Source: a virus
Taxonomy: Duplodnaviria > Caudoviricetes
Strand: one strand, 5' to 3'
Virus record (IMG/VR): IMGVR_UViG_3300020045_006069
Location: 1 to 34,970 of that record
DNA: 34,970 nt
Shown: positions 2,450 to 33,389 of the stretch, in pieces
How positions within the stretch are numbered: position 1 is the first letter of the stretch
How the letters are laid out: every line of letters starts with the position of its first letter
Notes under the pieces: generated by a model
What the model was told of the DNA's origin: nothing
The model's database searches: none
What the model saw: the letters and a program-made list of their open reading frames with translations, nothing else
Made by a program: the position numbers and the translations under genes

Positions 2450-2948
2450 CGTCGGCCGCCAACGGTTCGGGGATGAGACACCATTCTCCGGGGATGTCCT
2501 CCACTCGTGTCATTACGCCGCGATAAACGGTTCTCAGTTTTTCGTTAACCACATATGCGGTGAACTCGTCATCGGTTCTATCGAATCGGTGCAAGTATTT
2601 TCCTACTACCTTTGGCGTCGAATCTTCGCCCGCCTTCGGCCAGCGGGGCAAAGACTTTTTCAGTTCTTCAAGCTCGTTCAGCAGCGTTGCCGCCGCTGTC
2701 TTCCATTCGTCGCGTTCCTTTGTGACGGCGGCCAATTGCGATTCGGATTCGCTAATGAGAATTTCCTGAGTTTTGTAAAGTTCTCTCCATGTGTCGCGGT
2801 CCGTTGTGACGGTGGCGAGTTCAGCGCGAAGGCGTGCGATCTCATCATTCTTTTCGTCCGCCCCGGCATTGACGCAACTGAGGCAGTAGCCCTTGTATTT
2901 ACGGTCCCATCGCGGGTCGTTTTCCTGCCCACAGTTCTTGCAAATCAT
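2439..2948 (-). CDS. Phage protein with N-terminal CxxC pairs and coiled coil
   Basis: CKNC..CLSC; internal repeat LATVTTDRDTW / LAAVTKERDEW; ATGA coupling. Confidence 0.7.
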   Translation of the reverse strand: MICKNCGQENDPRWDRKYKGYCLSCVNAGADEKNDEIARLRAELATVTTDRDTWRELYKTQEILISESESQLAAVTKERDEWKTAAATLLNELEELKKSLPRWPKAGEDSTPKVVGKYLHRFDRTDDEFTAYVVNEKLRTVYRGVMTRVEDIPGEWCLIPEPLAADDAK

Positions 2949-11667: not shown

Positions 11668-11920
11668 CTGCCACACTTGCCACACTTGAAACTAAGTTCA
11701 TGGCGCATCGAATCTTCCGAACTGTGGCACGCTCCACACTTGATTCCCCAGTTGCCACACTTGCCACACTTGCCACACTTGCCACACTTGCCAACTGTGG
11801 CAACTATCTGAATTCCACACTTCAAATGATTCTTGCCACAGTTGGGAACCACATATGCGATATCATGTTACGTCTCAAGTGTGGCAAGTGTGGCAAGTGT
11901 GGCAACGAAATTCCACAGTT
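11668..11920. repeat. Direct and inverted 9-bp TTGCCACAC iteron-like array (putative replication origin)
   Basis: Four tandem TTGCCACAC at 11752-11787, two at ~11668-11686, three inverted CAAGTGTGG at 11876-11902, plus scattered CCACA cores; immediately 3' of the primase-helicase. Confidence 0.75.
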
Positions 11921-14139
11921 CACCATTGCACCCCGCTGCCGCTTTCGTTGTCGTCTGATTCCAGGTCTTTGAGGTACGGCCAATCAGCCGGAACCCACCA
12001 AACCCACTTCGAGCTTCCGTCCATATCGGTACGCTTTTTGGCTTTAGGCAACCCTAATTCGGCCTTGGCGTCGAATATGGAATCGCGGCTTACGCCTTCC
12101 TCGCGAGCGGCCTTAAACAATTCATCACTATCCCACTCAAGTTTGAGCTTGAATGCGGCAATGAGCCAATCGCGAGCGGCTACCTTACGCGGCTTCGTGT
12201 CGCCCGAAACGGCTTCATCGGCGGTGATGTCTACGTCGCCAAGCCATTCGATACGTGCAGGTCCGCCCGGATCGTTTTCATTGGCGGACAGAATGCGATA
12301 GCTAAGCCCCTTGCGTTCCCTACCGTTGTTGTTTTTCATGCCGATGAATAATCGACGTTCCGGGTCTGCCGGGTCTCTGGTGAAGATATGCGCCGATCTA
12401 ACGGCATTGACCCAGGCCACGCTTCCCATGACACGCATCATGGCGGACACCTTGCCGCCGCTTCCCTTGTTGACGTGGGTAATGAACACCATCGCAACTT
12501 CGCGATCCTTGCACCATTCCTTGAACGGCGAAATCAGGCTTCGCAGTTCGGCGTTCTTGTGGTCGTCAGTTTCACCGAGGTAATTGGTTGGCGGGTCAAT
12601 AACGATCAGGCGCACATTGCCCAATTGACGCCACGCCACTTCGAGCAATTCCAGGTCCGCCAAATAGTACTTGTCCAGCCATTCGCCCTTGAGAAACGCC
12701 ACCTTGTTTAGATCGGCCTTAGCTTCGATCAGGCGGGGAACCAGCGTATCGTCGGGATCATCTTCGCCGCTGATGTACAGGACGGAACCGGGCGTTTCGC
12801 ACGGCGAAGAATCGGGCCAGTCTCGGCCTGTTGAAATTCTGGCCGCGATGTCGCACGACACAAACGATTTCCCAAGTCCGCCCATTCCGGCAAATGTCGT
12901 CATCTTCGCCGCGGGGATTCTGTCTTGCCACAACCACTTGACACGCTTGGGCGGAACTTCGCTCGCCAACAGGATAACTTTATCCCCAGGCTTAAACCGG
13001 CATTCATCCTTGTCCGGCGGCTTGCCGTTGCGTTCGTGCTTGTTCTCATTCAACAGGTTCCCACGCTCGCCACTACCCTTCTGAGCGTCCGCAATCTTGT
13101 GCCGCAACTCTCTTTCCGTCCACGGTGGGCTACACGTCTCATTCCACTCAGACAACACGACATACGCTTCGTCATCATTTAGGTCGAAGCCGCGTATCAC
13201 CTTGAGGGCCGCAACGAACGTATTCGTATGCCCTTGTTGGCCGCTTACTGCGCCCGGTATCTTCTTGAGATACGCTCGCGCCCTATCCATGATTGGCGTG
13301 TTCGGAACTGAGATAGCTCGACCACTGAAAGCATTGTCTACGAATTGCTCCAATTCGCTTGTTGGTTCCGGCTTGACATTCTCAACAGGTTCAGGTTGTT
13401 TGGTGGCTTGCGTCTTTGCATTAGGCGATAGGAACGAATGTAATTGGTCGAATGTTAGGATGCTAGGCGGCGATGGAGCGTAAACGATAGACGACATGCG
13501 ATGAGGACGTTCAGTAGTGTTCTCACCTTTCCTGACCCATGTTCCCGGCAGTTTGCTGATTCGGCTGCGATTATGTACGGCCCGATCTATCTCGACTTCG
13601 GGCGTCGAGAACATATCGGAAATCTTGTGTATCACCGCTCGTAGTGTAGCGTCTGTTAAATCGTCGCAAGGTAAGTCAATCCGGTAAAGCAAGTGATAGC
13701 CGTTGCCGCTGTCGATGGTGACGGGGATAGGCCATCCTTTGCCCGCCAATGAATTGCATATCGTCGTTGCCATTTCGCGGCACTTGGCGCGTTCGGCGTC
13801 TGTTGCCGATTGATCTTTGTTTGTCTCATCTTTGACCCGATCTATGTCAATGAGCAACCATCTACGTTTCGCAATATCTTCCTTGCGTGCCGAACGTGTT
13901 ATCTTTGAACTAAGTGGATTTAAACTAAAGTACACGCCTTGATAGTTCGATAGTTCATCTATGAATGAACATAACGAATCTAGTTCGTCGCCTTTGGCGA
14001 CGAAACTATTGGCGTATGGGAGTGTTCTAATTTCGATGTATAGGTCAGGATCGGCGAGAATGGCAAGGGCTTGGCGGCAAGCATCAACTTGAGAGGGCGG
14101 GGCCATGTTGACGGCCCGCATTCGGAATGCCGAGGTCAT
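11920..14139 (-). CDS. Primase-helicase (AEP/RepB-like primase, PriCT-like domain, AAA_25 RepA-type helicase)
   Basis: LLIDID, DSGNGYHL, SRISKLPGT; WNETCSPPWTEREL; Walker A GMGGLGKS, SGED, IVIDP, ITHVNK. Confidence 0.88.
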   Translation of the reverse strand: MTSAFRMRAVNMAPPSQVDACRQALAILADPDLYIEIRTLPYANSFVAKGDELDSLCSFIDELSNYQGVYFSLNPLSSKITRSARKEDIAKRRWLLIDIDRVKDETNKDQSATDAERAKCREMATTICNSLAGKGWPIPVTIDSGNGYHLLYRIDLPCDDLTDATLRAVIHKISDMFSTPEVEIDRAVHNRSRISKLPGTWVRKGENTTERPHRMSSIVYAPSPPSILTFDQLHSFLSPNAKTQATKQPEPVENVKPEPTSELEQFVDNAFSGRAISVPNTPIMDRARAYLKKIPGAVSGQQGHTNTFVAALKVIRGFDLNDDEAYVVLSEWNETCSPPWTERELRHKIADAQKGSGERGNLLNENKHERNGKPPDKDECRFKPGDKVILLASEVPPKRVKWLWQDRIPAAKMTTFAGMGGLGKSFVSCDIAARISTGRDWPDSSPCETPGSVLYISGEDDPDDTLVPRLIEAKADLNKVAFLKGEWLDKYYLADLELLEVAWRQLGNVRLIVIDPPTNYLGETDDHKNAELRSLISPFKEWCKDREVAMVFITHVNKGSGGKVSAMMRVMGSVAWVNAVRSAHIFTRDPADPERRLFIGMKNNNGRERKGLSYRILSANENDPGGPARIEWLGDVDITADEAVSGDTKPRKVAARDWLIAAFKLKLEWDSDELFKAAREEGVSRDSIFDAKAELGLPKAKKRTDMDGSSKWVWWVPADWPYLKDLESDDNESGSGVQW

Positions 14140-14179
14140 GGGTCTAAGCCAATCTGTTTTGTTCTCTGACGCGAGATTG

Positions 14180-14219
14180 AAAATGATGCCCGGTCAATCG
14201 TTCATGACCGACCGGGCAT
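14180..14219 (-). terminator. 14-bp hairpin with short U-tract (terminator or processing site)
   Basis: Minus strand ATGCCCGGTCGGTC/GATTGACCGGGCAT then CATTTT. Confidence 0.5.
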
Positions 14220-14233
14220 TGCCGACACGACGA

Positions 14234-14947
14234 TTAGTAAGCCACTTCATTCGGCTCATCAAACGGAACGCCGGAATCCTCTTGAGGCTTTCCGTTCCGT
14301 TGCGGCTTGGCAGTCGAGCCGCTCATCATTTCACGCCATTCCTTCGACTTGGCGATGTACTCGTGTACCTTCTCGCCATAGACGCGGGGCAGCCAGGGCC
14401 ATTCGGGAAGGTCCGCGTTCATCGCAGGCTCGAACTGCTTGGCCTTGTTCCTCAAGTACAACCCATCCGTGAGCGACCACATGAAGGGTTGCGTTTTCGG
14501 GGCAGGCGGCGCTGGCAAGCCACGCGGAAGCTGGCCGAAGTCTTCGAGCTTGGCGTAGTCGCGATCCTTCGACGTTTTCCCGTGGGTGATCGTCAAGAGG
14601 GCAGGATGACAGAGACGGGCGGAATAGTCGATCATTTCGCCGTCCGCGAACTTCTTGCCCATCCACTTCTCGTAACTGATGCGGAGCTTCGCCTTCTCAT
14701 GCGTGGATAGCGTGTACACGCCACCAATGATGTGATTGCGTGTCGGCTCTTTTGTCGTCGGCTCGCCCGTAAGTTCCCACACCAGCATGACCTGATGAGA
14801 TTCCGACGTTTCCCCTCCGTAGGTTCGCGTCTGAGTCCCTAAGTCGATCATGCCGACAAGCACGCCAGGGATAGCGCCCTCGGGTTGGATTTCAAAATCT
14901 TCCCCTTCGCCCTGACCGCTCTTAGCCTGTCCGCCAAACATAGCCAT
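14234..14947 (-). CDS. Phage replication protein, SSB-like (NGO0469-like family)
   Basis: IDLGTQ..VWEL..YTLSTHEKAKLR..W.GKKF; acidic PF-containing C-terminal tail; sits next to the primase-helicase. Confidence 0.7.
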   Translation of the reverse strand: MAMFGGQAKSGQGEGEDFEIQPEGAIPGVLVGMIDLGTQTRTYGGETSESHQVMLVWELTGEPTTKEPTRNHIIGGVYTLSTHEKAKLRISYEKWMGKKFADGEMIDYSARLCHPALLTITHGKTSKDRDYAKLEDFGQLPRGLPAPPAPKTQPFMWSLTDGLYLRNKAKQFEPAMNADLPEWPWLPRVYGEKVHEYIAKSKEWREMMSGSTAKPQRNGKPQEDSGVPFDEPNEVAY

Positions 14948-15011
14948 ACACTCTCTCTCTTTCTTTGGGTATACCCTTGTTTAGACACAGTAGGGGCGAC
15001 GTTGCCCCATT

Positions 15012-15054
15012 CGGCCTAGTGGGAGTCGAACCCACTTCCGATGCCGTTAGGCCG
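15012..15054 (-). ncRNA. tRNA-like minihelix (acceptor stem plus T-arm, no D or anticodon arm)
   Basis: CGGCCTA-acggcatcggaa-GTGGG-TTCGACT-CCCAC-TAGGCCG: 7-bp plus 5-bp stems with a canonical T-loop. Confidence 0.6.
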
Positions 15055-15061
15055 TTGACGT

Positions 15062-15152
15062 GCCAATCTAGCCTATTGCTCCCTGGCCCGACCCCGCCGC
15101 TTCAACACACAAAAGCCGCTTGAGTTTCCAGGGAGCAATGGGATAGATTGGC
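15062..15152. other. Long intergenic hairpin
   Basis: GCCAATCTA/TAGATTGGC and ATTGCTCCCTGG/CCAGGGAGCAAT arms. Confidence 0.6.
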
Positions 15153-15224
15153 TTGCTTCTTACCTGTCCTGTTTCGTGTGTTATTCAGACTGTTGAGCCA
15201 GTCGGGATGGCCGCAACAAGGTAA

Positions 15225-15253
15225 AGGTTACTTCCCTTCCGTCGCCGCGTCAA
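15225..15253 (-). promoter_or_regulatory. Possible sigma70-like promoter for the replication operon
   Basis: TTGACG-17-TAACCT upstream of the structured leader. Confidence 0.45.
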
Positions 15254-15267
15254 GGTCGGTTTTCTGG

Positions 15268-15597
15268 CTATCGCATTGAGTTCAGGTACGCCGCGTATTC
15301 TTCGTGGCAGTTGTCGGAACAGACCGTGCTACGTCCGCCGAAGATCGGGCCAGAACAATTGGCGCACTTGCCCGTTGGCGGTCCCAGGTCTTCGGTGTCG
15401 TCTTCTTTTGTGCATTCGTCGAAGCATTGCTCGCACATGCCGCTTATCGCGTACTCTCGCCGTCCGGCGTCTGAGTAGCACTTCGGCAATGCTGGCTGAC
15501 GACAAGAGATACACATGCCAGCGGGAATAGACGTTGCCGTATCTTCCAGGTTGGCATTCTTTCGTAGCATGGCTTTGAAGACTTCGAGTGAGTTCAT
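15268..15597 (-). CDS. Double zinc-finger phage protein
   Basis: CISC..EYAISGMCEQC; CANC..CSDNC; GGGAG RBS. Confidence 0.7.
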   Translation of the reverse strand: MNSLEVFKAMLRKNANLEDTATSIPAGMCISCRQPALPKCYSDAGRREYAISGMCEQCFDECTKEDDTEDLGPPTGKCANCSGPIFGGRSTVCSDNCHEEYAAYLNSMR

Positions 15598-16232
15598 GAT
15601 TGCGACTCCCAATAGGCCATAGGGTCGCGATTGTTCGGATAGTGTTCGTCCAACCATTTATTAGCGGCGTCACTATGTCTTCGGTAATTGGAATCGGCGT
15701 AATAGTCATCCCATGTCGGATAGGTGGCGACTTGATGAATCGGTGTGTTGTCTGAGTCAAACACGCCGATGATGACTGGTTCGCCGTCCTTTTGCCCTCC
15801 AGTGCTGCCCGATCCGTAACGACATTCCAGTCCAAACGTGTGGGCGTTGAAGTCGTAGAACGCGGCCTTGAAGAACACTTTGGCACGCTTGCGTCCTTGA
15901 TCGTCAACGACGCTCGACCACATGGAATGACCGGACGGCTTTAGCGACCATCCTTTCGGGAACGTTGCTTCAGCGAACACTTCTCGGCCACGCTGAGACA
16001 GTTCGGGGATCGGCTTGCCGAATACGAAGCCCACGGATTCCCACTGTGCCCGTTTAACCGGATCGTCTATGGTTCCTCGTATTGGAAGCCTATCGCAAAC
16101 GCTGTTGAGTTCGCGTTGTCCTTCGGCTTCTTGCGCTTCGATTCCCCCTGGCGTCATGGCGCGAATGCAATTGGCCATGTCTCCGTCGAGTGCGGCTTTA
16201 AGTGCTGCTGGTGTCATTCGTATTTGGTTCAT
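15594..16232 (-). CDS. Conserved hypothetical phage protein
   Basis: PGGIEAQEAEGQ..PKGW..HSMWS.VVD.QGRKRA.VFFKAAFYD; AAGGAG RBS. Confidence 0.75.
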   Translation of the reverse strand: MNQIRMTPAALKAALDGDMANCIRAMTPGGIEAQEAEGQRELNSVCDRLPIRGTIDDPVKRAQWESVGFVFGKPIPELSQRGREVFAEATFPKGWSLKPSGHSMWSSVVDDQGRKRAKVFFKAAFYDFNAHTFGLECRYGSGSTGGQKDGEPVIIGVFDSDNTPIHQVATYPTWDDYYADSNYRRHSDAANKWLDEHYPNNRDPMAYWESQS

Positions 16233-16492
16233 GATTGCTTGCTCCTTTCGGCGATCATGGCGTCGGCCACTTTGTAAGCGTGTTCCGCAGCGACACGGCA
16301 TCCTGACTCGGTATTGTCTAACGGGTCTCTATGCTCACTGTTGCCCATGATGCCGCAGAGGGCTTGACCGGCGAACCAGTCACGAAGCGACATGCCGCCA
16401 GTAAGTTCGGCGCTGATGTTGGCGCAATATCCCATTCCGCTGAATTGAAGATTCTTTGGGAACGCTGGTCCGCCGTCGTTGGTCTTTGTCAT
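16229..16492 (-). CDS. Conserved phage protein (GGPAFP / GMSLRDWFA family)
   Basis: GGPAFP..GMSLRDWFAGQAL..AYKVADAMIAER. Confidence 0.85.
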   Translation of the reverse strand: MTKTNDGGPAFPKNLQFSGMGYCANISAELTGGMSLRDWFAGQALCGIMGNSEHRDPLDNTESGCRVAAEHAYKVADAMIAERSKQS

Positions 16493-16860
16493 TGGTTTTG
16501 CTCCGTTGTTTCGTTGTCCTTTGCGTCGCAGTCAGGGCATTGCCACGCAACGGGAATATCTTCTCCGTTCTCTTTGGCAGTGAAGATTCGCCACCCATTC
16601 GGCAGTGTCCAATTATCATCACGCGGTCGGAAGTCCGGAATTGTTGCACCGCAATCCGTGCATTGACCAGCGAAGAATGCCCGGTCCATTTGCTCGCGTA
16701 TGGCGTCGAGTTGTTGTTGCACTTCAGGCGGCATTTCCGCCGTATTGTCGCCCGCGAATACGACTTTCATTCCGGGAAACGACTTGGCCAATTCGGCCTC
16801 AATGGCGGCAACGTCGTTCATATCGAAGTCGTCGCGGTGTGGTAGGTTGTTCGGCTTCAT
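16489..16860 (-). CDS. Hypothetical zinc-ribbon protein
   Basis: CTDC..CPDC; GGAG RBS; ATGA coupling. Confidence 0.65.
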   Translation of the reverse strand: MKPNNLPHRDDFDMNDVAAIEAELAKSFPGMKVVFAGDNTAEMPPEVQQQLDAIREQMDRAFFAGQCTDCGATIPDFRPRDDNWTLPNGWRIFTAKENGEDIPVAWQCPDCDAKDNETTEQNQ

Positions 16861-17348
16861 CGTATCTCCACGTATTCACTCACATTCACATCGAACCCGT
16901 CCGGTAACGCACCGGCCTTGTACATTTCCAATGCCTTGTCGCTGTTCAGTTCCACCTTCACCCGCTGTAACTCCGTTGGCAGTTCTTCGGGCGGGCGAGG
17001 CCATTTGATCGACGGCCGACTTGCTTTACGGACAGAAGCCGTACCGATGCCGACGTTTATCTTCGGGATGTTGGCGTGCTTGAGGCATGCCAACAGGTAT
17101 TCCTTGATCCACTTCATCGACTTGGTCTTGGAGCGTTTCTTTTCTTCGAGTCTCTTTATCTCGTCATCGAAACCCATTTCGTCAGTTTCCTGATGCCGGT
17201 AGAGCGCAATGAGGTTGCGCACTTTCGTTTGAATGTCGCCTTCGATGCTATCAAGGATGGCGGCTTGTTCGGCTGTTATTTCTTCGCAGTTCTCAAGCGA
17301 GTCCGCGAAGGCGCGGTATTCGGCGGATAGTTCGTAGAGTCTGGTCAT
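16857..17348 (-). CDS. Siphovirus Gp157 family protein
   Basis: LYELSAEY..LDSIEGDIQTKV..EIKRL..IKEYLL..SVRK. Confidence 0.85.
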   Translation of the reverse strand: MTRLYELSAEYRAFADSLENCEEITAEQAAILDSIEGDIQTKVRNLIALYRHQETDEMGFDDEIKRLEEKKRSKTKSMKWIKEYLLACLKHANIPKINVGIGTASVRKASRPSIKWPRPPEELPTELQRVKVELNSDKALEMYKAGALPDGFDVNVSEYVEIR

Positions 17349-17593
17349 TTGTCGGCCTCGCATTCGGCATAGATCAGGGCGAAGTACCGCAACGCTGCCA
17401 TGATGATAATTTTCATGGATTCATCGGGTAGGGTTTTAGTCAGTGACGACCACTTGTCGCACGGAACATTAAAAAAGACTTTGAGACAGGATTCGATGAA
17501 CTTGTCACCGTTCCGCATGGCGTCCTTGAGCGCCGTGTCCAACTGGTCAGACGCGGCAAGGATCGTGGCGTGTAGTTTGTTCGGGTCGCTCAT
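17345..17593 (-). CDS. Hypothetical protein
   Basis: ATGA coupling on both sides. Confidence 0.6.
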   Translation of the reverse strand: MSDPNKLHATILAASDQLDTALKDAMRNGDKFIESCLKVFFNVPCDKWSSLTKTLPDESMKIIIMAALRYFALIYAECEADK

Positions 17594-17895: not shown

Positions 17896-18099
17896 TCAAA
17901 TGTCGCCTTGCTCAACGATGTTCGTTACTTGCGTCTCGTTGCGTTTCTTTTCCCGGATCGCCTTGCGGTCGATGACCAGGGACTTCGGCGCATCGAATGC
18001 CAATCTTACTTTCCCCTTGCAGATTTGGGCTATGGTGACAACGATGTCATCACCGATTAGGAACTGCTCGCCCACCTTGCCGCTAAGCACCAATGACAT
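17896..18099 (-). CDS. csrA: Carbon storage regulator CsrA/RsmA-like RNA-binding protein
   Basis: LVLSGKVGEQFLIGDDIVVTI..GKVRLAFDAPKSLVIDRKAI matches the CsrA pattern LILTRRVGE.L.IGDDV.VTV..QVRIGV.AP..V.VHR.EI. Confidence 0.88.
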   Translation of the reverse strand: MSLVLSGKVGEQFLIGDDIVVTIAQICKGKVRLAFDAPKSLVIDRKAIREKKRNETQVTNIVEQGDI

Positions 18100-18120: not shown

Positions 18121-18594
18121 TTATTCTTCGTCGGGCACTTTGTAAGGCGTCAACAGATTGAACGCTTCATCAATTCGCTTGTCGAGTTCGTCGCGGTCAG
18201 CGATTAGTCCGCCGATCTTGAAGATGATCGAGTCGTTGTCAGGACCGAGAGGGTAACATAGCTCGGCTGCTGCTTTGGCGATTTCGCCTTCGGCGTGAAA
18301 CTTCCCTTTGCTCAGGTGCTTTATGCGTACCTCATCTTTAGTGCCATACGAGCGATACGACGACTTCGCGGCGATGCTGGTGATTTCAACTGGGTCGAGT
18401 CGCGAGCCGTAAACGGCTTTGACCCGCTCGAATGGCTTACCCTTCGGCTTTGACACCGGCTTGTCGATGGTGGCTTTGGCTTCCTTGAGGGAAACCGCTT
18501 CCTTCTCCCGACCGCGAAGCGTGAATAGCCATTTGTCCGTCACTTCGTTGTAGGTGATTTCAACGTCGTGATATGTAACCTTGACTTCGTTCAC
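18121..18594 (-). CDS. Hypothetical protein
   Basis: GGAG RBS before GTG 18594 (alternative ATG at 18609). Confidence 0.7.
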   Translation of the reverse strand: MNEVKVTYHDVEITYNEVTDKWLFTLRGREKEAVSLKEAKATIDKPVSKPKGKPFERVKAVYGSRLDPVEITSIAAKSSYRSYGTKDEVRIKHLSKGKFHAEGEIAKAAAELCYPLGPDNDSIIFKIGGLIADRDELDKRIDEAFNLLTPYKVPDEE

Positions 18595-18619
18595 TGCGGT
18601 TATCTCCATTGAAAGAAAA

Positions 18620-18725
18620 GAGCGGATAGCACCGTTTCATTGGCATGCAACGGTTCGCCAACCGTCGCACTTCACAGGGCCGGAGCCGGCAACGCACCGA
18701 TTCCGGTTTGCGGCGCTACCCGCTC
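18620..18725 (-). ncRNA. Structured RNA motif, copy A (three-way junction followed by U-tract)
   Basis: 15-bp closing stem with G-U pairs on the minus strand, two internal hairpins, then TTTTCTTT. Confidence 0.75.
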
Positions 18726-18744
18726 GTGGTCCGTAGTCAAAAAA

Positions 18745-18849
18745 GGCGGATAACGCCGTTTCATTCCGGGTGTGCCGGTTCGGCAACCGTCACATCACGC
18801 TGGCCTGCGCTGGCAACGCACCAGTGCAAAAGCCGCGACGTTATCCGCC
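18745..18849 (-). ncRNA. Structured RNA motif, copy B (three-way junction followed by U-tract)
   Basis: 14-bp closing stem, same loop TGCGTTG and junctions GTGA and AATGAAA as copy A, then TTTTTT. Confidence 0.75.
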
Positions 18850-19230
18850 CGTGGTTCGCTGGGCGAGTATCAGGTCGATTTCAGGCAGCAACAGTCTCCG
18901 CATTTCATTTCGCGGCGTGTCGTCGAACCAGTTCAGAAAGTGCCTGACGCCTGCCGGTTCCTTCAATTCCTCGTCGCACATATGGCAGCGTTCGGCGAAG
19001 AACTTTTCCACTTCGCCAACTGTTTTTAGGTCGTTGCCTTTCCAGCCGCACCATCCGGTAGCGCATGCGCCTTCAATCGGCCAGTCTTGTACACACATGA
19101 GCGGCGGTGATGTCGTCGCACCTTGGAGTAGTTTCGGATCATCGGTTTCGACTGCTTCTCGAAGCGAAACGAGGCCAGAGGTCGGTAAGAATTTGGCCAG
19201 CGCTCGCCAAGCTAGTTTCCATAGTTCCAT
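18841..19230 (-). CDS. Conserved hypothetical protein of Gemmataceae type
   Basis: DDPKLLQGATTSPPLMCVQDWPIEGAC..TVGEVEKFF..FLNWFDDTPR (family recalled, not searched); CAGGAG RBS before ATG 19230. Confidence 0.75.
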   Translation of the reverse strand: MELWKLAWRALAKFLPTSGLVSLREAVETDDPKLLQGATTSPPLMCVQDWPIEGACATGWCGWKGNDLKTVGEVEKFFAERCHMCDEELKEPAGVRHFLNWFDDTPRNEMRRLLLPEIDLILAQRTTGG

Positions 19231-19250: not shown

Positions 19251-19853
19251 CTAAGCATTCTTCGCGGTTTGCAGGTGGATCGGTAAATAACCGTGCCATT
19301 TCATTGACATACAGCCGAACGGCACGCGAGCGCCTTCAAGTATCGGTTCGCCGTATTTTGCGGACGTTCGGATAGACTTGGATTTGCCAGCCGCGAATTC
19401 AACCCATTTATCACCGCATCCGGTATCCAAAACTTCGCAGCATGGGTCGATAATCCAACCGTGTGCATGTTCGCTTGCCACATGGCCGACGAATACGCTA
19501 AAGCCGTAGCCGTGCGGGATAAATACGAGTGAGTTTTCGCCGACGATGAGCACGATTTGGTTCTCCGGTTTGAGTAGTCCGACGAGTCCGCCGAGTCCGC
19601 TGAGTCCGCCGCGTCCGACGAGTCCGCCGAGTCCGCTGAGTCCGACGAGTCCGCCGCGTCCGACGAGTCCGCCGAGTCCGCTGAGTCCGACGAGTCCGCC
19701 GCGTCCGACGAGTCCTAAGTCGTAGATTTGGCCGCGCCAGTATGCCGCTTGCGGGTCGCCGTGTTCTTCCAGCCAATCTGCATAGACCAATTGCGGGCCA
19801 CGGTCGCGCGGATGGTCGTTAATCATTTTCTGAAACGGTATGCGGTCGTGCAT
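19251..19853 (-). CDS. TIGR02996 domain protein with (Gly-X-X)16 repeat
   Basis: FQKMINDHPRDRGPQLVYADWLEEHGDPQA, then GLV-GRG-GLV-GLS-GLG repeats; AGGAG RBS. Confidence 0.85.
   Translation of the reverse strand: MHDRIPFQKMINDHPRDRGPQLVYADWLEEHGDPQAAYWRGQIYDLGLVGRGGLVGLSGLGGLVGRGGLVGLSGLGGLVGRGGLSGLGGLVGLLKPENQIVLIVGENSLVFIPHGYGFSVFVGHVASEHAHGWIIDPCCEVLDTGCGDKWVEFAAGKSKSIRTSAKYGEPILEGARVPFGCMSMKWHGYLPIHLQTAKNA
19575..19718. repeat. 9-bp tandem repeat x16 with a 45-bp higher-order period
   Basis: Units GAGTCCGCC / GAGTCCGCT / GAGTCCGAC / GCGTCCGAC; 19611-19655 equals 19656-19700. Confidence 0.95.
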
Positions 19854-20956: not shown

Positions 20957-21139
20957 TCACCAGATTTCGTCAAGACGGCTCGCCATGCCTTCGAGTTCAT
21001 CCTCGAAGTCGGCGTACTCGTCGTTTTGGTTTTCGTCGGCCCATGTGTCCATTGCGATGGCAAGGGCGCGGAGTACGGCAGGCAGTCCGTTAGTTTCGAT
21101 CATGGACAGTAATTGGGCTTCGGTCGTTTGCGGCTTCAT
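20957..21139 (-). CDS. Small acidic early protein
   Basis: GGAGA RBS in the repeated linker; D/E-rich C-terminus. Confidence 0.7.
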   Translation of the reverse strand: MKPQTTEAQLLSMIETNGLPAVLRALAIAMDTWADENQNDEYADFEDELEGMASRLDEIW

Positions 21140-21174
21140 TGCAGTTTCTCCGGTTCGGGGTTAGTGGGAAAAAT

Positions 21175-21192
21175 GCGGGCGTCCTTGCCCGC
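21175..21192 (-). promoter_or_regulatory. CAAGGACG stem-loop (CsrA-type site) 2
   Basis: GCGGGC-AAGGAC-GCCCGC then ATTTTT. Confidence 0.6.
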
Positions 21193-21210
21193 CGCTTCCC
21201 GGTCGATGCA

Positions 21211-21543
21211 TCAAGACGGTTTCCAGTCACCGATTCCGCATGCCTCTAGGTCGATATGGCAAGCGGTCGCGGCTTGTTCCAGTTCGGCATTCTGAATGAA
21301 AATCGGCATGTTATCGAGGGTTAATTGGCATGCGGTCATACACTCGGCAAGGTCGCGGATTTCAGCAGCAAGATTGAATAGGTCTCTTGCCGGTTGTGAC
21401 GGTTTGCCCTTGTCCAGTTCGCCGCGAATCTGGAGACTCAGATCGTAAACCTTGCTGTTGCAAATCCGCACGGTGGTCTTGAGTTTCGCTTCGAGTTGTC
21501 GCCATTGATCGGCGGTGAGCATGAGTTGTTTGCGTCGGGCCAT
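21211..21543 (-). CDS. Helical early protein
   Basis: ATG 21543 follows the repeated linker with GGAGA. Confidence 0.7.
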   Translation of the reverse strand: MARRKQLMLTADQWRQLEAKLKTTVRICNSKVYDLSLQIRGELDKGKPSQPARDLFNLAAEIRDLAECMTACQLTLDNMPIFIQNAELEQAATACHIDLEACGIGDWKPS

Positions 21544-21578
21544 TGTCAGTTTCTCCGGTTCGGGGTTAGTGGGAAAAA

Positions 21579-21596
21579 TGCGGCGTCCTTGCCGCA
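21579..21596 (-). promoter_or_regulatory. CAAGGACG stem-loop (CsrA-type site) 3
   Basis: TGCGGC-AAGGAC-GCCGCA then TTTTT. Confidence 0.6.
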
Positions 21597-21609
21597 CGCT
21601 GCGAGCGGA

Positions 21610-21753
21610 TCAGGATGACCACACAACAACGTCCCATGCGCCAGCGTCCCAAGTCTCAGCGGCACATTGGCGGGCTTCGGCTTCGGTGAAGAACGTCACA
21701 CAATGCCCGTTGTCGTTTTGGCTCATCATGTAGGAAACGTGCCAGAATTGCAT
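21610..21753 (-). CDS. Small early protein (47 aa)
   Basis: Manually translated MQFWHVSYMM..FFTEAEARQCA..VVWSS; GAGGGAG RBS; first gene after a promoter. Confidence 0.65.
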   Translation of the reverse strand: MQFWHVSYMMSQNDNGHCVTFFTEAEARQCAAETWDAGAWDVVVWSS

Positions 21754-21797
21754 TGTCGGCTCCCTCATTTGCGTTTCGATCATTCACCACTACTTAC

Positions 21798-21826
21798 ACT
21801 ATAGTTTCGCTATAGCGTAGTGTCAA
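21798..21826 (-). promoter_or_regulatory. Strong sigma70-like early promoter
   Basis: TTGACA-17-TATAGT; palindrome CGCTATAGCG in the spacer; A-rich upstream region. Confidence 0.85.
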
Positions 21827-21839
21827 GTGGATTGTGGAA

Positions 21840-22037
21840 TTATTTTCCAAGTTTTTTTCGGTGCCGTTCGATCCATTGGCGGATTGCTTCGACGGCGCAT
21901 GATGTCATGGGTCGGTCAAGGGCGGTTGCGATCTCGCGTAGTTCGGCATGGATTTCAGGTAGCAAGCCAATCAACATCGGCTTGCGTCCGCTCGCCTTGA
22001 GACTCGCACCGCCGCTAGGTCGTTTAGTTGTTTCCAT
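21840..22037 (-). CDS. RHH/Arc-like DNA-binding protein, probably leaderless
   Basis: PMLIGLLPEIHAELREIATALDRPMTSCAVEAIRQWI; ATG 22037 lies 7 nt after TAATAT. Confidence 0.7.
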   Translation of the reverse strand: METTKRPSGGASLKASGRKPMLIGLLPEIHAELREIATALDRPMTSCAVEAIRQWIERHRKKLGK

Positions 22038-22044
22038 GCCGATC

Positions 22045-22073
22045 ATATTAGCATTCCTAAGTTGGCCGGTCAA
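22045..22073 (-). promoter_or_regulatory. Sigma70-like promoter (leaderless)
   Basis: TTGACC-17-TAATAT. Confidence 0.7.
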
Positions 22074-22435
22074 ATTTTTTTGACCAGTCCATCCCTCAAG
22101 GCTTGCGCCCAGGCAATCGGGCGTACCATGTAGCCCGCTCGCGATGTTCGCGTTTGGTCTTCGAACTGGTACGGGGATACGGTCGATAACCAGTCCAATT
22201 GAACGAGGGTTTCCAACATGCCGCGCGGCAGGCCGATTGATACGGGCGTGATGGTTCCGCCGATCTGTGCTCGGCGGTCATGTAGCACGCGAAGTAGTGC
22301 GGATCGTTCCGGGGCAGTGAGCCAGGGCCATCGCACGGGGCTGGACGTGGACTCATGGCGTTTCGCTGGCTTGTCATCGTGGTAAACGTCGATCATGCCA
22401 ACGGGCATATCGGCGGAGGTTGTAACTAAACGCAT
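22070..22435 (-). CDS. Hypothetical early protein
   Basis: GAGGA RBS in the repeated linker. Confidence 0.65.
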   Translation of the reverse strand: MRLVTTSADMPVGMIDVYHDDKPAKRHESTSSPVRWPWLTAPERSALLRVLHDRRAQIGGTITPVSIGLPRGMLETLVQLDWLSTVSPYQFEDQTRTSRAGYMVRPIAWAQALRDGLVKKI

Positions 22436-22457
22436 TGGCGGGTTCCTCGGTTCGGGG

Positions 22458-23060
22458 TTAGTTGGCGTTTGCGTAATGGCGTTTGACTAACTTCGTTGCG
22501 GCTTTGGTCGCGTTCTTTTGCACTCGATCGTATCGCGTTCGGTGTTGGCGGTGGTCGTTGTACCATAGATGCCAGTATTCGCACGCGACAGCGCCCAAGA
22601 TGAAAAGCACATCCCAATTGACTTGACTAATGACCCTGCCGATGGATGTATCGACGACATGGCGATTGATGTTTGATAAATCGCTGTCGATTCTTAGTTT
22701 CAATGCTGTCGAACAGTTGCGTATTCGTTGTGCTAGTTCACATTCTCCGCGCTCTTCCAGCCAGTCCGCCACTACGTCGGCGGCTCCCGGTTCGCCAGCA
22801 AACAGAGTTTTAACGAATGGCTTTAGCAGGGCTTTGCGTTCGTTCTCCGCGCGTCGTTCGGCGCTTAACGCTTCCTTCCTCTGTTGCGCCTTCGCGGTGG
22901 CGCGTTCGATCTTTCGATTGCGGCGCTTGGCTTCTTTCACCGCATCGGCCCGGTTCTTAAAGAGTCGCGACGATTTACGGGTCTCTCGATTGAACGCCGC
23001 CCATAGTGTCGGTTCGTCGTCGGATCGGCCAGGGATGCTAACGTGAATCCAAGGGTTCAT
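22458..23060 (-). CDS. Early protein with an internal TIGR02996-like domain
   Basis: PFVKTLFAGEPGAADVVADWLEERGECELAQRIR; start refined to ATG 23060 after the linker. Confidence 0.75.
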   Translation of the reverse strand: MNPWIHVSIPGRSDDEPTLWAAFNRETRKSSRLFKNRADAVKEAKRRNRKIERATAKAQQRKEALSAERRAENERKALLKPFVKTLFAGEPGAADVVADWLEERGECELAQRIRNCSTALKLRIDSDLSNINRHVVDTSIGRVISQVNWDVLFILGAVACEYWHLWYNDHRQHRTRYDRVQKNATKAATKLVKRHYANAN

Positions 23061-23083
23061 TTGCGGGTTCCTCGGTTCGTGGG

Positions 23084-26660: not shown

Positions 26661-26702
26661 ACTATATCCGACTATCGACAACGTGTCAAGTAATGTTGTC
26701 GA
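26661..26702 (-). promoter_or_regulatory. Strong sigma70-like early promoter with inverted repeat around the -35
   Basis: TTGACA-17-TATAGT; TCGACAAC (26675-26682) / GTTGTCGA (26695-26702). Confidence 0.85.
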
Positions 26703-32421: not shown

Positions 32422-32507
32422 CGGATTTTGTAGAATAAACGACGGGATTGGATGTATGTGGCATCGCAACCCCGTCTAACACCGAAACGCTGAAAGGAGC
32501 GTTCGCA

Positions 32508-33389
32508 ATGTCTGAATCGAATTCTATGAAACGTAGAACCGGCTGGACCTTACTTGAGTTGCTCGTCGTAATCGCAATCATCGCGATTCTGATTGGCTTG
32601 CTCTTACCCGCGATCCAGAAGGTGCGGGAAGCGGCGGCGCGGATCAAGTGCGCCAACAACTTGAAGCAATGCGGACTCGCGGCGTTGAACTACGAATCGG
32701 CCCGCAAGGAACTGCCCAACGGCGGCGCATACGGTGCGAAGCATAACGTTGGCTTGTTCCATCACATTCTGCCATTCATCGAAGCCCGCGTCACGCTGAA
32801 TCACAACGGCGTCACGATTGACACGTCGCCGATGTTCTTTTGCCCGACGCGGCGCGGCGTCACGGTGATGGATACGCCCTGGGGACCGGCTTCGCTGAAT
32901 GACTACGTTTGGCCCACTGAGCCGCATTACGGTAACCCGGCTGACCCGTTCCATGCTCACGGATTCTGGACCGGCGAATGGACAACGGCAGTTTCGCCGA
33001 CGTGGTTCCCAACGTGGTTCAATTACAAGTCGATCTATCACCGCATTCCGCCGCAACGAACGACCATTGCCATGATCACCGACGGCGCGTCATCGACGAT
33101 GCTGCTATCGGAAAAGAGCATCGACCCGAACAAGTACAGCGGCGGCAGCAATGGGGACTACGGCAGCGTCTATCTGTCGTTGAATCCGCACGTGTCGCGA
33201 GTCATCACTCGCACACCACTTCGGGACCGACCAGGATACAGCGACGAGTATTTCGGCAGTGCTCACCCGAACGGTCTGAATGTCTTGTTCGTCGATGGGC
33301 ACGTTGACCATGTGAGTTATTCGGTCAACGGCAAGGTGTGGAAGGCACTCGGCACACGCGCGGGGCGGGAGGTCATCAACGGTGAATGA
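32508..33389 (+). CDS. DUF1559 family prepilin-type protein with H-X9-DG domain
   Basis: [43 protein letters not shown]; [14 protein letters not shown]; [18 protein letters not shown]; AAAGGAG RBS. Confidence 0.95.

Follow-up and report, generated by a model that had tools for sequence, protein, structure and literature searches.

What are the two side-by-side, structured RNA-like segments at the boundary between the small early genes and the csrA/Gp157/primase block of this phage genome, and what might they do there? The window, meaning the whole stretch of DNA that was analysed, spans all 34,970 bases of a linear virus record. It encodes a terminase, a portal, an SNF2-type helicase, a DNA methylase, an AAA_25 primase-helicase-type protein, Gp157, CsrA and a DUF1559 protein. 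A preliminary description had proposed a tandem pair of three-way-junction RNAs on the minus strand at 18612..18855, upstream of the csrA, Gp157 and replication genes; both copies were found there, and the gene order was borne out.

Place and fold of the tandem RNA

The genes and the promoter around the two copies, termed A and B, are as follows:

21798..21826, minus strand: sigma-70-like promoter TTGACA-17-TATAGT (11/12), the nearest strong one upstream of the element
18841..19230, minus strand: upstream gene of 129 aa, from a conserved Planctomycetota/Gemmataceae hypothetical family (the ORF finder opens it at 19299)
18121..18609, minus strand: first downstream gene, hypothetical phage protein, best relative 41% identical
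17896..18099, minus strand: csrA, second downstream gene (Pfam PF02599, E 5e-15)
11920..17363, minus strand: recombination/replication block downstream of csrA
16857-17363, minus strand: Gp157
14234-14947, minus strand: phrog_862 protein
11920-14139, minus strand: AAA_25 primase-helicase-type protein

The TAA stop of the upstream gene falls within the 5' strand of the closing stem (P1) of copy B, and the gene is without the tail of about 20 residues typical of most of its relatives. Its family gave 749 matches and, since the named relatives are Planctomycetes/Gemmataceae, the phage host is likely a planctomycete. On the other side, a GGAG lies 3 nt past the U-tract of copy A, and the probable start of the first downstream gene is a GTG at 18594. 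None of the 13 early ORFs between 18121 and 21783 matched PHROGs; the best identity to the N-terminal part of the primase is 47%, and the nearest relatives of the primase (43-47% identity) are on ENA/Logan contigs.

Strong minus-strand sigma-70-like promoters occur at 26689, 24751 and 21826, and those at 26689-26661 and 21826-21798 have identical hexamers (TTGACA-17-TATAGT). From 20100 to 18560 no such promoter was found, also when the pattern was relaxed, and the downstream genes thus likely depend on read-through. There are five minus-strand U-tracts between 21826 and the primase start at 14139, two of them being those located directly after the P1 stems.

An Arc-like repressor gene (phrog_3431, E 4e-4; 21840-22073) ends just upstream of the 21826 promoter. 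The repeat GCTTAGCGGCAAG occurs at 19885-19870, 19259-19244 and 18091-18076 (minus strand), in two cases directly 5' of a CAGGAG ribosome site and in the third within the opening codons of csrA, and is possibly an operator or a small hairpin. A 9-bp tandem repeat of about 16 units (19567-19724) codes for Gly-Leu-x tripeptides; the protein has 200 aa, and its N-terminus is similar to the planctomycete TIGR02996 domain. Over the window ARAGORN found no tRNA or tmRNA genes, nor does it call a tRNA-like minihelix at 15044-15012 (minus strand), upstream of the phrog_862 gene. The canonical T-arm of this minihelix (GTGGG-TTCGACT-CCCAC, 15035-15019; a tmRNA model fragment, E 0.046) adjoins a possible acceptor-like stem of 6-7 pairs, and the wider region folds no better than shuffles. 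The phage-borne DUF1559 (SBP_bac_10) protein (32448-33389, plus strand) is of host type and has an N-methylation motif.

The element itself consists of two diverged copies side by side on the minus strand, B at 18856-18738 and A at 18731-18612, with a spacing of 124-125 nt. The closed units measure 107 nt (B, 18850-18744) and 106 nt (A, 18725-18620), and have these parts:

18855-18850, minus strand: copy B, leader ACCACG (from sequence, folding and alignment)
18850-18836 with 18758-18744, minus strand: copy B, P1
18830-18804, minus strand: copy B, P2, with loop (L2) TGCGTTG at 18820-18814
18803-18795, minus strand: copy B, J2/3, with GTGA at 18798-18795
18794-18771, minus strand: copy B, P3
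18770-18759, minus strand: copy B, J3/1, with AATGAAA at 18765-18759
18744-18739, minus strand: copy B, U-tract
18730-18725, minus strand: copy A, leader ACCACG (from sequence, folding and alignment)
18725-18711 with 18634-18620, minus strand: copy A, P1
18706-18680, minus strand: copy A, P2, with loop (L2) TGCGTTG at 18696-18690
18679-18670, minus strand: copy A, J2/3, with GTGA at 18675-18672
18669-18646, minus strand: copy A, P3
18645-18635, minus strand: copy A, J3/1, with AATGAAA at 18641-18635
18619-18612, minus strand: copy A, U-tract TTTTCTTT

Each copy folds as a three-way junction of 34 pairs, with 15 in P1, 9 plus an A.C mismatch common to both copies in P2, and 10 in P3. This retains the junction as first drawn, except that P2 of copy B runs two U-G pairs further. 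Minimum free energies are -62.7 kcal/mol for A (z -6.5) and -55.5 kcal/mol for B (z -3.7), and none of 200 shuffles folded as well for either copy; the plus-strand fold is weaker for A (z -2.7) and about equal for B (z -3.9). In both copies the U-tract lies directly 3' of the closing stem, and the P1 base adjoining it is G-C rich. Sequence inspection suggests a possible contact of two CG:CG pairs between L2 and L3, and a candidate CGUU-AAUG pseudoknot would have only four invariant pairs, without covariation. A profile of both copies gave no third match within the window.

The stems had been said to keep their pairing despite divergence, which holds for 33 of the 34 pairs. Between the copies 19 pairs are identical, 6 have changed on both sides and 8 on one side, and the single broken pair is an A-U in P3 that has become A.G in B. 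Altogether 21 of the 68 paired positions differ. Random placement of 21 substitutions breaks a mean of 7-10 pairs and gives at most one break with a probability of 1e-5 to 3e-3, depending on transition bias, values that are somewhat optimistic because the very sequences being compared supplied the structure. When pairing partners are slid, pairing falls from 98.5% to 36-45%. Wobble positions comprise 8 G-U on the minus strand, which is the transcribed strand, versus 2 A.C.

Identity between the copies is 7/7 in L2, 3/4 in L3 and 5/6 in the leader. For the junctions it is 8/11 in J3/1, 1/4 in J1/2 and 4/9 in J2/3, where the alignment misses the GTGA present in both copies; for the stems it is 22/30 in P1, 11/20 in P2 and 16/20 in P3. 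Invariant parts are L2, AATGAAA, GTGA, the A.C mismatch and the upper five P3 pairs; the distance of GTGA from P3 differs by 2 nt from one copy to the other. The motifs TGCGTTG, AATGAAA, GTGA and ACCACG occur in both copies, as initially listed. With a structure model drawn from two sequences on one genome fragment, the compensated stems and the strand preference of the wobbles give good support to the proposal that the element is a genuine RNA fold of the minus strand, maintained by selection.

Known RNA families and further copies

The element did not reach the gathering score in three scans against Rfam 15, the best scores over it being 12-14 bits (E 4-6) in one scan and the other two giving no match there, in agreement with the early impression that no known family fits. 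The motif is not described in the available portions of PMC5320573, PMC2864571, PMC5737381 and PMC12197685, and supplements or subscription journals might hold one. As far as the available text of PMC5737381 extends, drum, FuFi-1, skipping-rope and DUF3800-I are orphan structured RNAs with 3' terminators and a proposed nearby protein partner. Our element is likewise a conserved structured RNA ending in a terminator signal; unlike those RNAs, as described there, its U-tract follows the closing stem itself and it has no linked partner gene. The portion available of the PMC2864571 motif table gives STAXI as a tandem motif near DNA-handling genes. The element is an orphan structured RNA in tandem, outside every family tested.

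A covariance model built from the two copies scores them at 135 and 134 bits. The covarying homologues sought with it did not emerge, a weak result for a phage that is without close relatives in the collections. Pattern searches of IMG/VR gave no matches in one set, 0/39 that fold like the element by eye in another, and 0/37 in a third; of these 37, the top candidate (L400) forms a closing stem and no P2/P3 junction, scores 12.9 bits, and is apparently antisense to a coding frame. In 39 of 64 metagenome parts, 118 matches were found and all were folded. None was right among the 25 most stable, and of the 118, 100 were run through the covariance model, which scored them at 15.8 bits at most.

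Phage records with relatives of the upstream gene held the element in 0 of 28 cases, and among 11 records with relatives of the downstream gene there was one weak match, inside a methylase ORF, and no true one. Thus, neither flanking gene is regularly accompanied by the RNA. Across 80 loci with primase relatives the best score was 16.7 bits, with none in the whole records of 50 of the 80, and a single-protein scan found no relative.

Genome matches at family level (1/151) and at class level (1/151) are the same plain hairpin terminator. Other genome searches yielded 12/401 pattern matches, none with the stems by eye, and 15/267 short BLAST matches; of the 10 examined, the best is without P1 and apparently antisense to a gene. 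GenBank phages gave 2 short matches and plasmids 13, all by chance. A sequence-free descriptor (a long stem plus U-tract) was run over 0.41 and 1.66 Mb, and among 30 of its 117 candidates listed there was one lead, in the phage record L299, with CGTTG in a loop but without P3, and it was not accepted as a copy.

The early region of L299 has, at 2816-2910 (plus strand), a long closing stem and U-tract around a hairpin with loop CTCGTTG. At 2742-2802 (plus strand) it has a hammerhead-like motif with a core recognized by eye and not scored by Rfam.

A third copy was not found in IMG/VR, the 39 of 64 metagenome parts, sampled planctomycete genomes, GenBank phages or plasmids. This absence is weak evidence of rarity, given a two-sequence model, exact-match patterns and a phage with no close relatives.

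Start regions and intergenic hairpins of the early genes

Beyond what had first been noticed, a pattern shared by the start regions of four early genes, CGAACCG-N9-11-AATG, is also present in the 3' half of each RNA copy. The start regions are located as follows:

21137..23079, minus strand: early-gene start regions with CGAACCG-N9-11-AATG, at 23079, 22454, 21562 and 21157

The remaining two matches are the segments of the RNA copies that span the 3' side of P3 and J3/1 (18782 and 18657). The six matches in the window compare with 0.14 expected and with none in 100 shuffles, and because the pattern was picked post hoc and start regions are AACC-rich, the true significance is less than the shuffle figure. 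The four early starts have GGAG/AGGA in the spacer, whereas in the RNA copies this purine run is replaced by P3-paired bases. Most simply, an early-gene start module would have given rise to the 3' half of the RNA; it could alternatively reflect mimicry, as in a decoy, or contain a live start codon.

Start regions between 26626 and 19230 (minus strand) contain a repeated module, …CCCCGAACC-GGAG/AGGA-ACCCGCAATG, and ACC(C)GC(C)A(A)RTG occurs ten times on the minus strand and never on the plus strand. Five intergenic hairpins on the minus strand (25613-25600, 25068-25055, 21594-21581, 21190-21177 and 20936-20923) have the hexaloops AAGGAC, ACGGAC or AAGGAT (ANGGAN), and two are then followed by T-runs. 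The five matches to an ANGGAN-loop hairpin compare with 0.26 expected for a pattern made post hoc. CsrA sites have the consensus ANGGA in hairpin loops, and the phage encodes its own CsrA; from their loop sequences, the hairpins look like CsrA-type sites that would control early genes. Together with the T-runs after two of them, they suggest RNA-level control in the operon.

CsrB/RsmZ-type RNAs are CsrA sponges, and the element resembles them as a small structured RNA near csrA. It differs in that GGA occurs once in A and twice in B, at no shared position and in no hairpin loop of either copy, and a CsrA sponge was rejected.

Candidate functions of the pair

The reading that we consider most likely, with a probability of about 40%, is a pair of leaky intrinsic terminators in which a protein bound to the conserved loop and junction would set the extent of read-through; two small RNAs are nearly as likely. 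A transcript from the promoter at 21826, the presumed source, would carry both RNAs, and the 15-pair closing stem with its U-tract would stop part of this early transcript. By default termination would be slow or leaky, with the 5' strand of P1 held in alternative helices in the nascent RNA, and a factor that stabilises the native arrangement of P2 and the junction would release this strand and make termination tighter. The invariant loop and junction would likely bind a putative protein that sets polymerase passage into the csrA, Gp157 and primase genes, with two serial units multiplying the effect.

The U-tracts and the surrounding genes are consistent with a role as terminators. Regulated termination is favored by U-tracts that directly follow P1 despite substitutions at 21/68 paired positions, by the location at the boundary of early and replication genes, and by the invariance of L2, AATGAAA, GTGA, the A.C mismatch and upper P3, which, next to a J1/2 of 1/4 identity, exceeds the needs of a plain terminator. 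As in intrinsic terminators, the U-tract comes at once after a G-C-rich stem. In place of their short loop (3-8 nt) there is a 76-nt two-hairpin domain, an atypical loop for a terminator stem to close, and a standard terminator scan does not call the element. Arguing against termination, a 15-pair stem that joins the ends is equally typical of a stable small RNA.

Prefix folding indicates that the P1 5' strand is trapped by 11.5 kcal/mol in A, in helices with L2 and the P2 3' strand, and by 7.9 kcal/mol in B, with J2/3 and the P3 flank; among 500 pair-shuffled controls, 8% (A) and 52% (B) have a trap of equal strength. Because the two copies have different traps, neither of which outdoes the controls, no conserved switch is demonstrated, and gating by a ligand, which had been put forward at the outset, gained no direct support. 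A conserved antiterminator was likewise not supported: each copy has alternative folds, but these are unlike one another and no better than those of the controls.

Lambdoid phages have early terminators between the immediate-early and the replication/recombination genes, which are overridden by N/nut or by HK022 put. The element is like these in that its signals stand between the early and replication genes of a long early operon. However, lambdoid terminators are simple hairpins with separate utilisation sites, whereas the element would carry its conserved surface inside the terminator stem; an N-like protein was not found, nor was an antiterminator or RNA-binding partner in the early ORFs of this record, which is estimated to be 44% complete. 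The pair might even represent a novel type of phage regulatory RNA. Its terminator loop would consist of a complete three-way junction that binds a ligand or protein, and the two units, built from the early start module or mimicking it, would act in tandem as a gate between early and replication genes, a proposition that we regard as rather unlikely.

Alternatively, the early transcript might give rise to two stable trans-acting small RNAs, serving as protein decoys or as C4/CI-like antisense RNAs through L2 and J3/1. Their 3' end would lie at the U-tract, and a host nuclease would cut the 5' end at the base of P1. We hold this possibility tentatively. It agrees with a closed, stable fold that shows no conserved switch, with the retained ACCACG leader, and with the likeness of J3/1 and the P3 3' side to early-gene start regions, as might be expected of a decoy. 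C4 RNA, in the available text of PMC5320573, has three stems, RNase P processing and a'/b' loops. To the extent covered there, the element resembles C4 of phages P1 and P7 (RF01695; P1 record AF234172) and the P4 CI type, with a long closing P1, two hairpins and, in the topology of phage P1 C4, a 7-nt single strand just before the P1 3' strand. As in the C4/CI design, the closing stem and two hairpins leave single-stranded seeds, and like C4 the element is part of an early phage transcript, with a ribosome-binding site a short way downstream.

Several differences weigh against this analogy. RF01695 gave no match at E <= 1 and cmscan none, the conserved loop is that of P2 in the element and of P3 in C4, the unit has 106 nt versus 77 nt, and, unlike C4, it occurs in tandem with a U-tract straight after P1. 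Flanking complementary boxes of the C4 type (a/b) were not found in the contig, and cis targets of this kind were rejected: the imperfect sites just 3' of A rank 330/890, 701/883 and 348/897 among peaks for three seed pairs, in the middle of the field. L2 was rejected as antisense to early start codons, its complementarity to 24 early start regions being marginal and equalled by 4-15% of permuted seeds. Nor was a promoter of the RNAs' own found. A 3' end at the U-tract would be the first step common to the attenuator and the small-RNA models.

Tandem riboswitches with three-way-junction aptamers include the purine, TPP and c-di-GMP-I types. The element shares with them a three-way junction, long conserved junction strands and tandem copies each with a U-tract, here ahead of replication genes, and the equal 10-pair arms P2 and P3 of both copies and the possible L2-L3 contact might also suit an aptamer. 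A metabolite or ion riboswitch, in which the entire aptamer would make up the terminator loop (ligand bound = off), is nonetheless improbable: no Rfam riboswitch matches, there is no separate expression platform, a conserved alternative fold did not emerge, no metabolic gene lies downstream, and the element was not found in the sampled planctomycete genomes.

We give even less credence to an attenuator in which the AUG of J3/1 is a real start and a loaded ribosome blocks P1, leading to read-through. This AUG has the CGAACCG-N9-11-AATG context of four real early starts and opens frames beginning MKR, of 30 aa in B and 26 aa in A. The B frame stops at the TGA of A's GTGA, the A frame overlaps the start of the next gene, and the upstream gene stops inside P1 of B. 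However, the GGAG/AGGA Shine-Dalgarno sequence of real starts is absent from both copies, in which this stretch is paired in P3, the distance from the AUG to the end of the U-tract is only about 29 nt, and the two peptides differ by non-synonymous changes. Very little weight falls to remaining functions, such as a processing or stabilising site.

The hammerhead type III consensus has a CUGANGA core, GAAA directly after stem II and an NUH cleavage site. The element has the same stem order, with UGA (in GUGA) before the second hairpin P3 and GAAA before the closing stem, and a hammerhead-like motif was seen by eye in the comparable early region of L299, a phage with a related primase. However, the catalytic core is absent even at one mismatch, 7-8 extra nucleotides precede GAAA, position 22 is C and not U, no Rfam ribozyme matches, and a hammerhead was rejected. 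That the pair is a new self-cleaving ribozyme processing the early transcript is highly improbable; 3' terminators are at odds with self-cleavage, according to the text available of PMC5737381. The least probable reading is a single-stranded DNA structure, such as a priming or recombination signal, for which the tolerance of DNA for G-T wobbles, the folding of both copies as DNA (-29.6 and -34.3 kcal/mol) and the nearby replication genes could be cited, against a favored strand that is the transcribed one and strand-specific U-tracts after both stems.

Gene control in planctomycete phages is barely described in the literature searched. The extent of internal covariation, together with the lack of a family match, marks the pair as a real orphan RNA motif. 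If the closing stem terminates transcription under the control of its own junction, this would broaden the concept of the intrinsic terminator to include a form that current terminator finders would miss. If the copies are instead free small RNAs, the reach of the C4/CI design, or of RNA decoys, would widen to a distant phylum.
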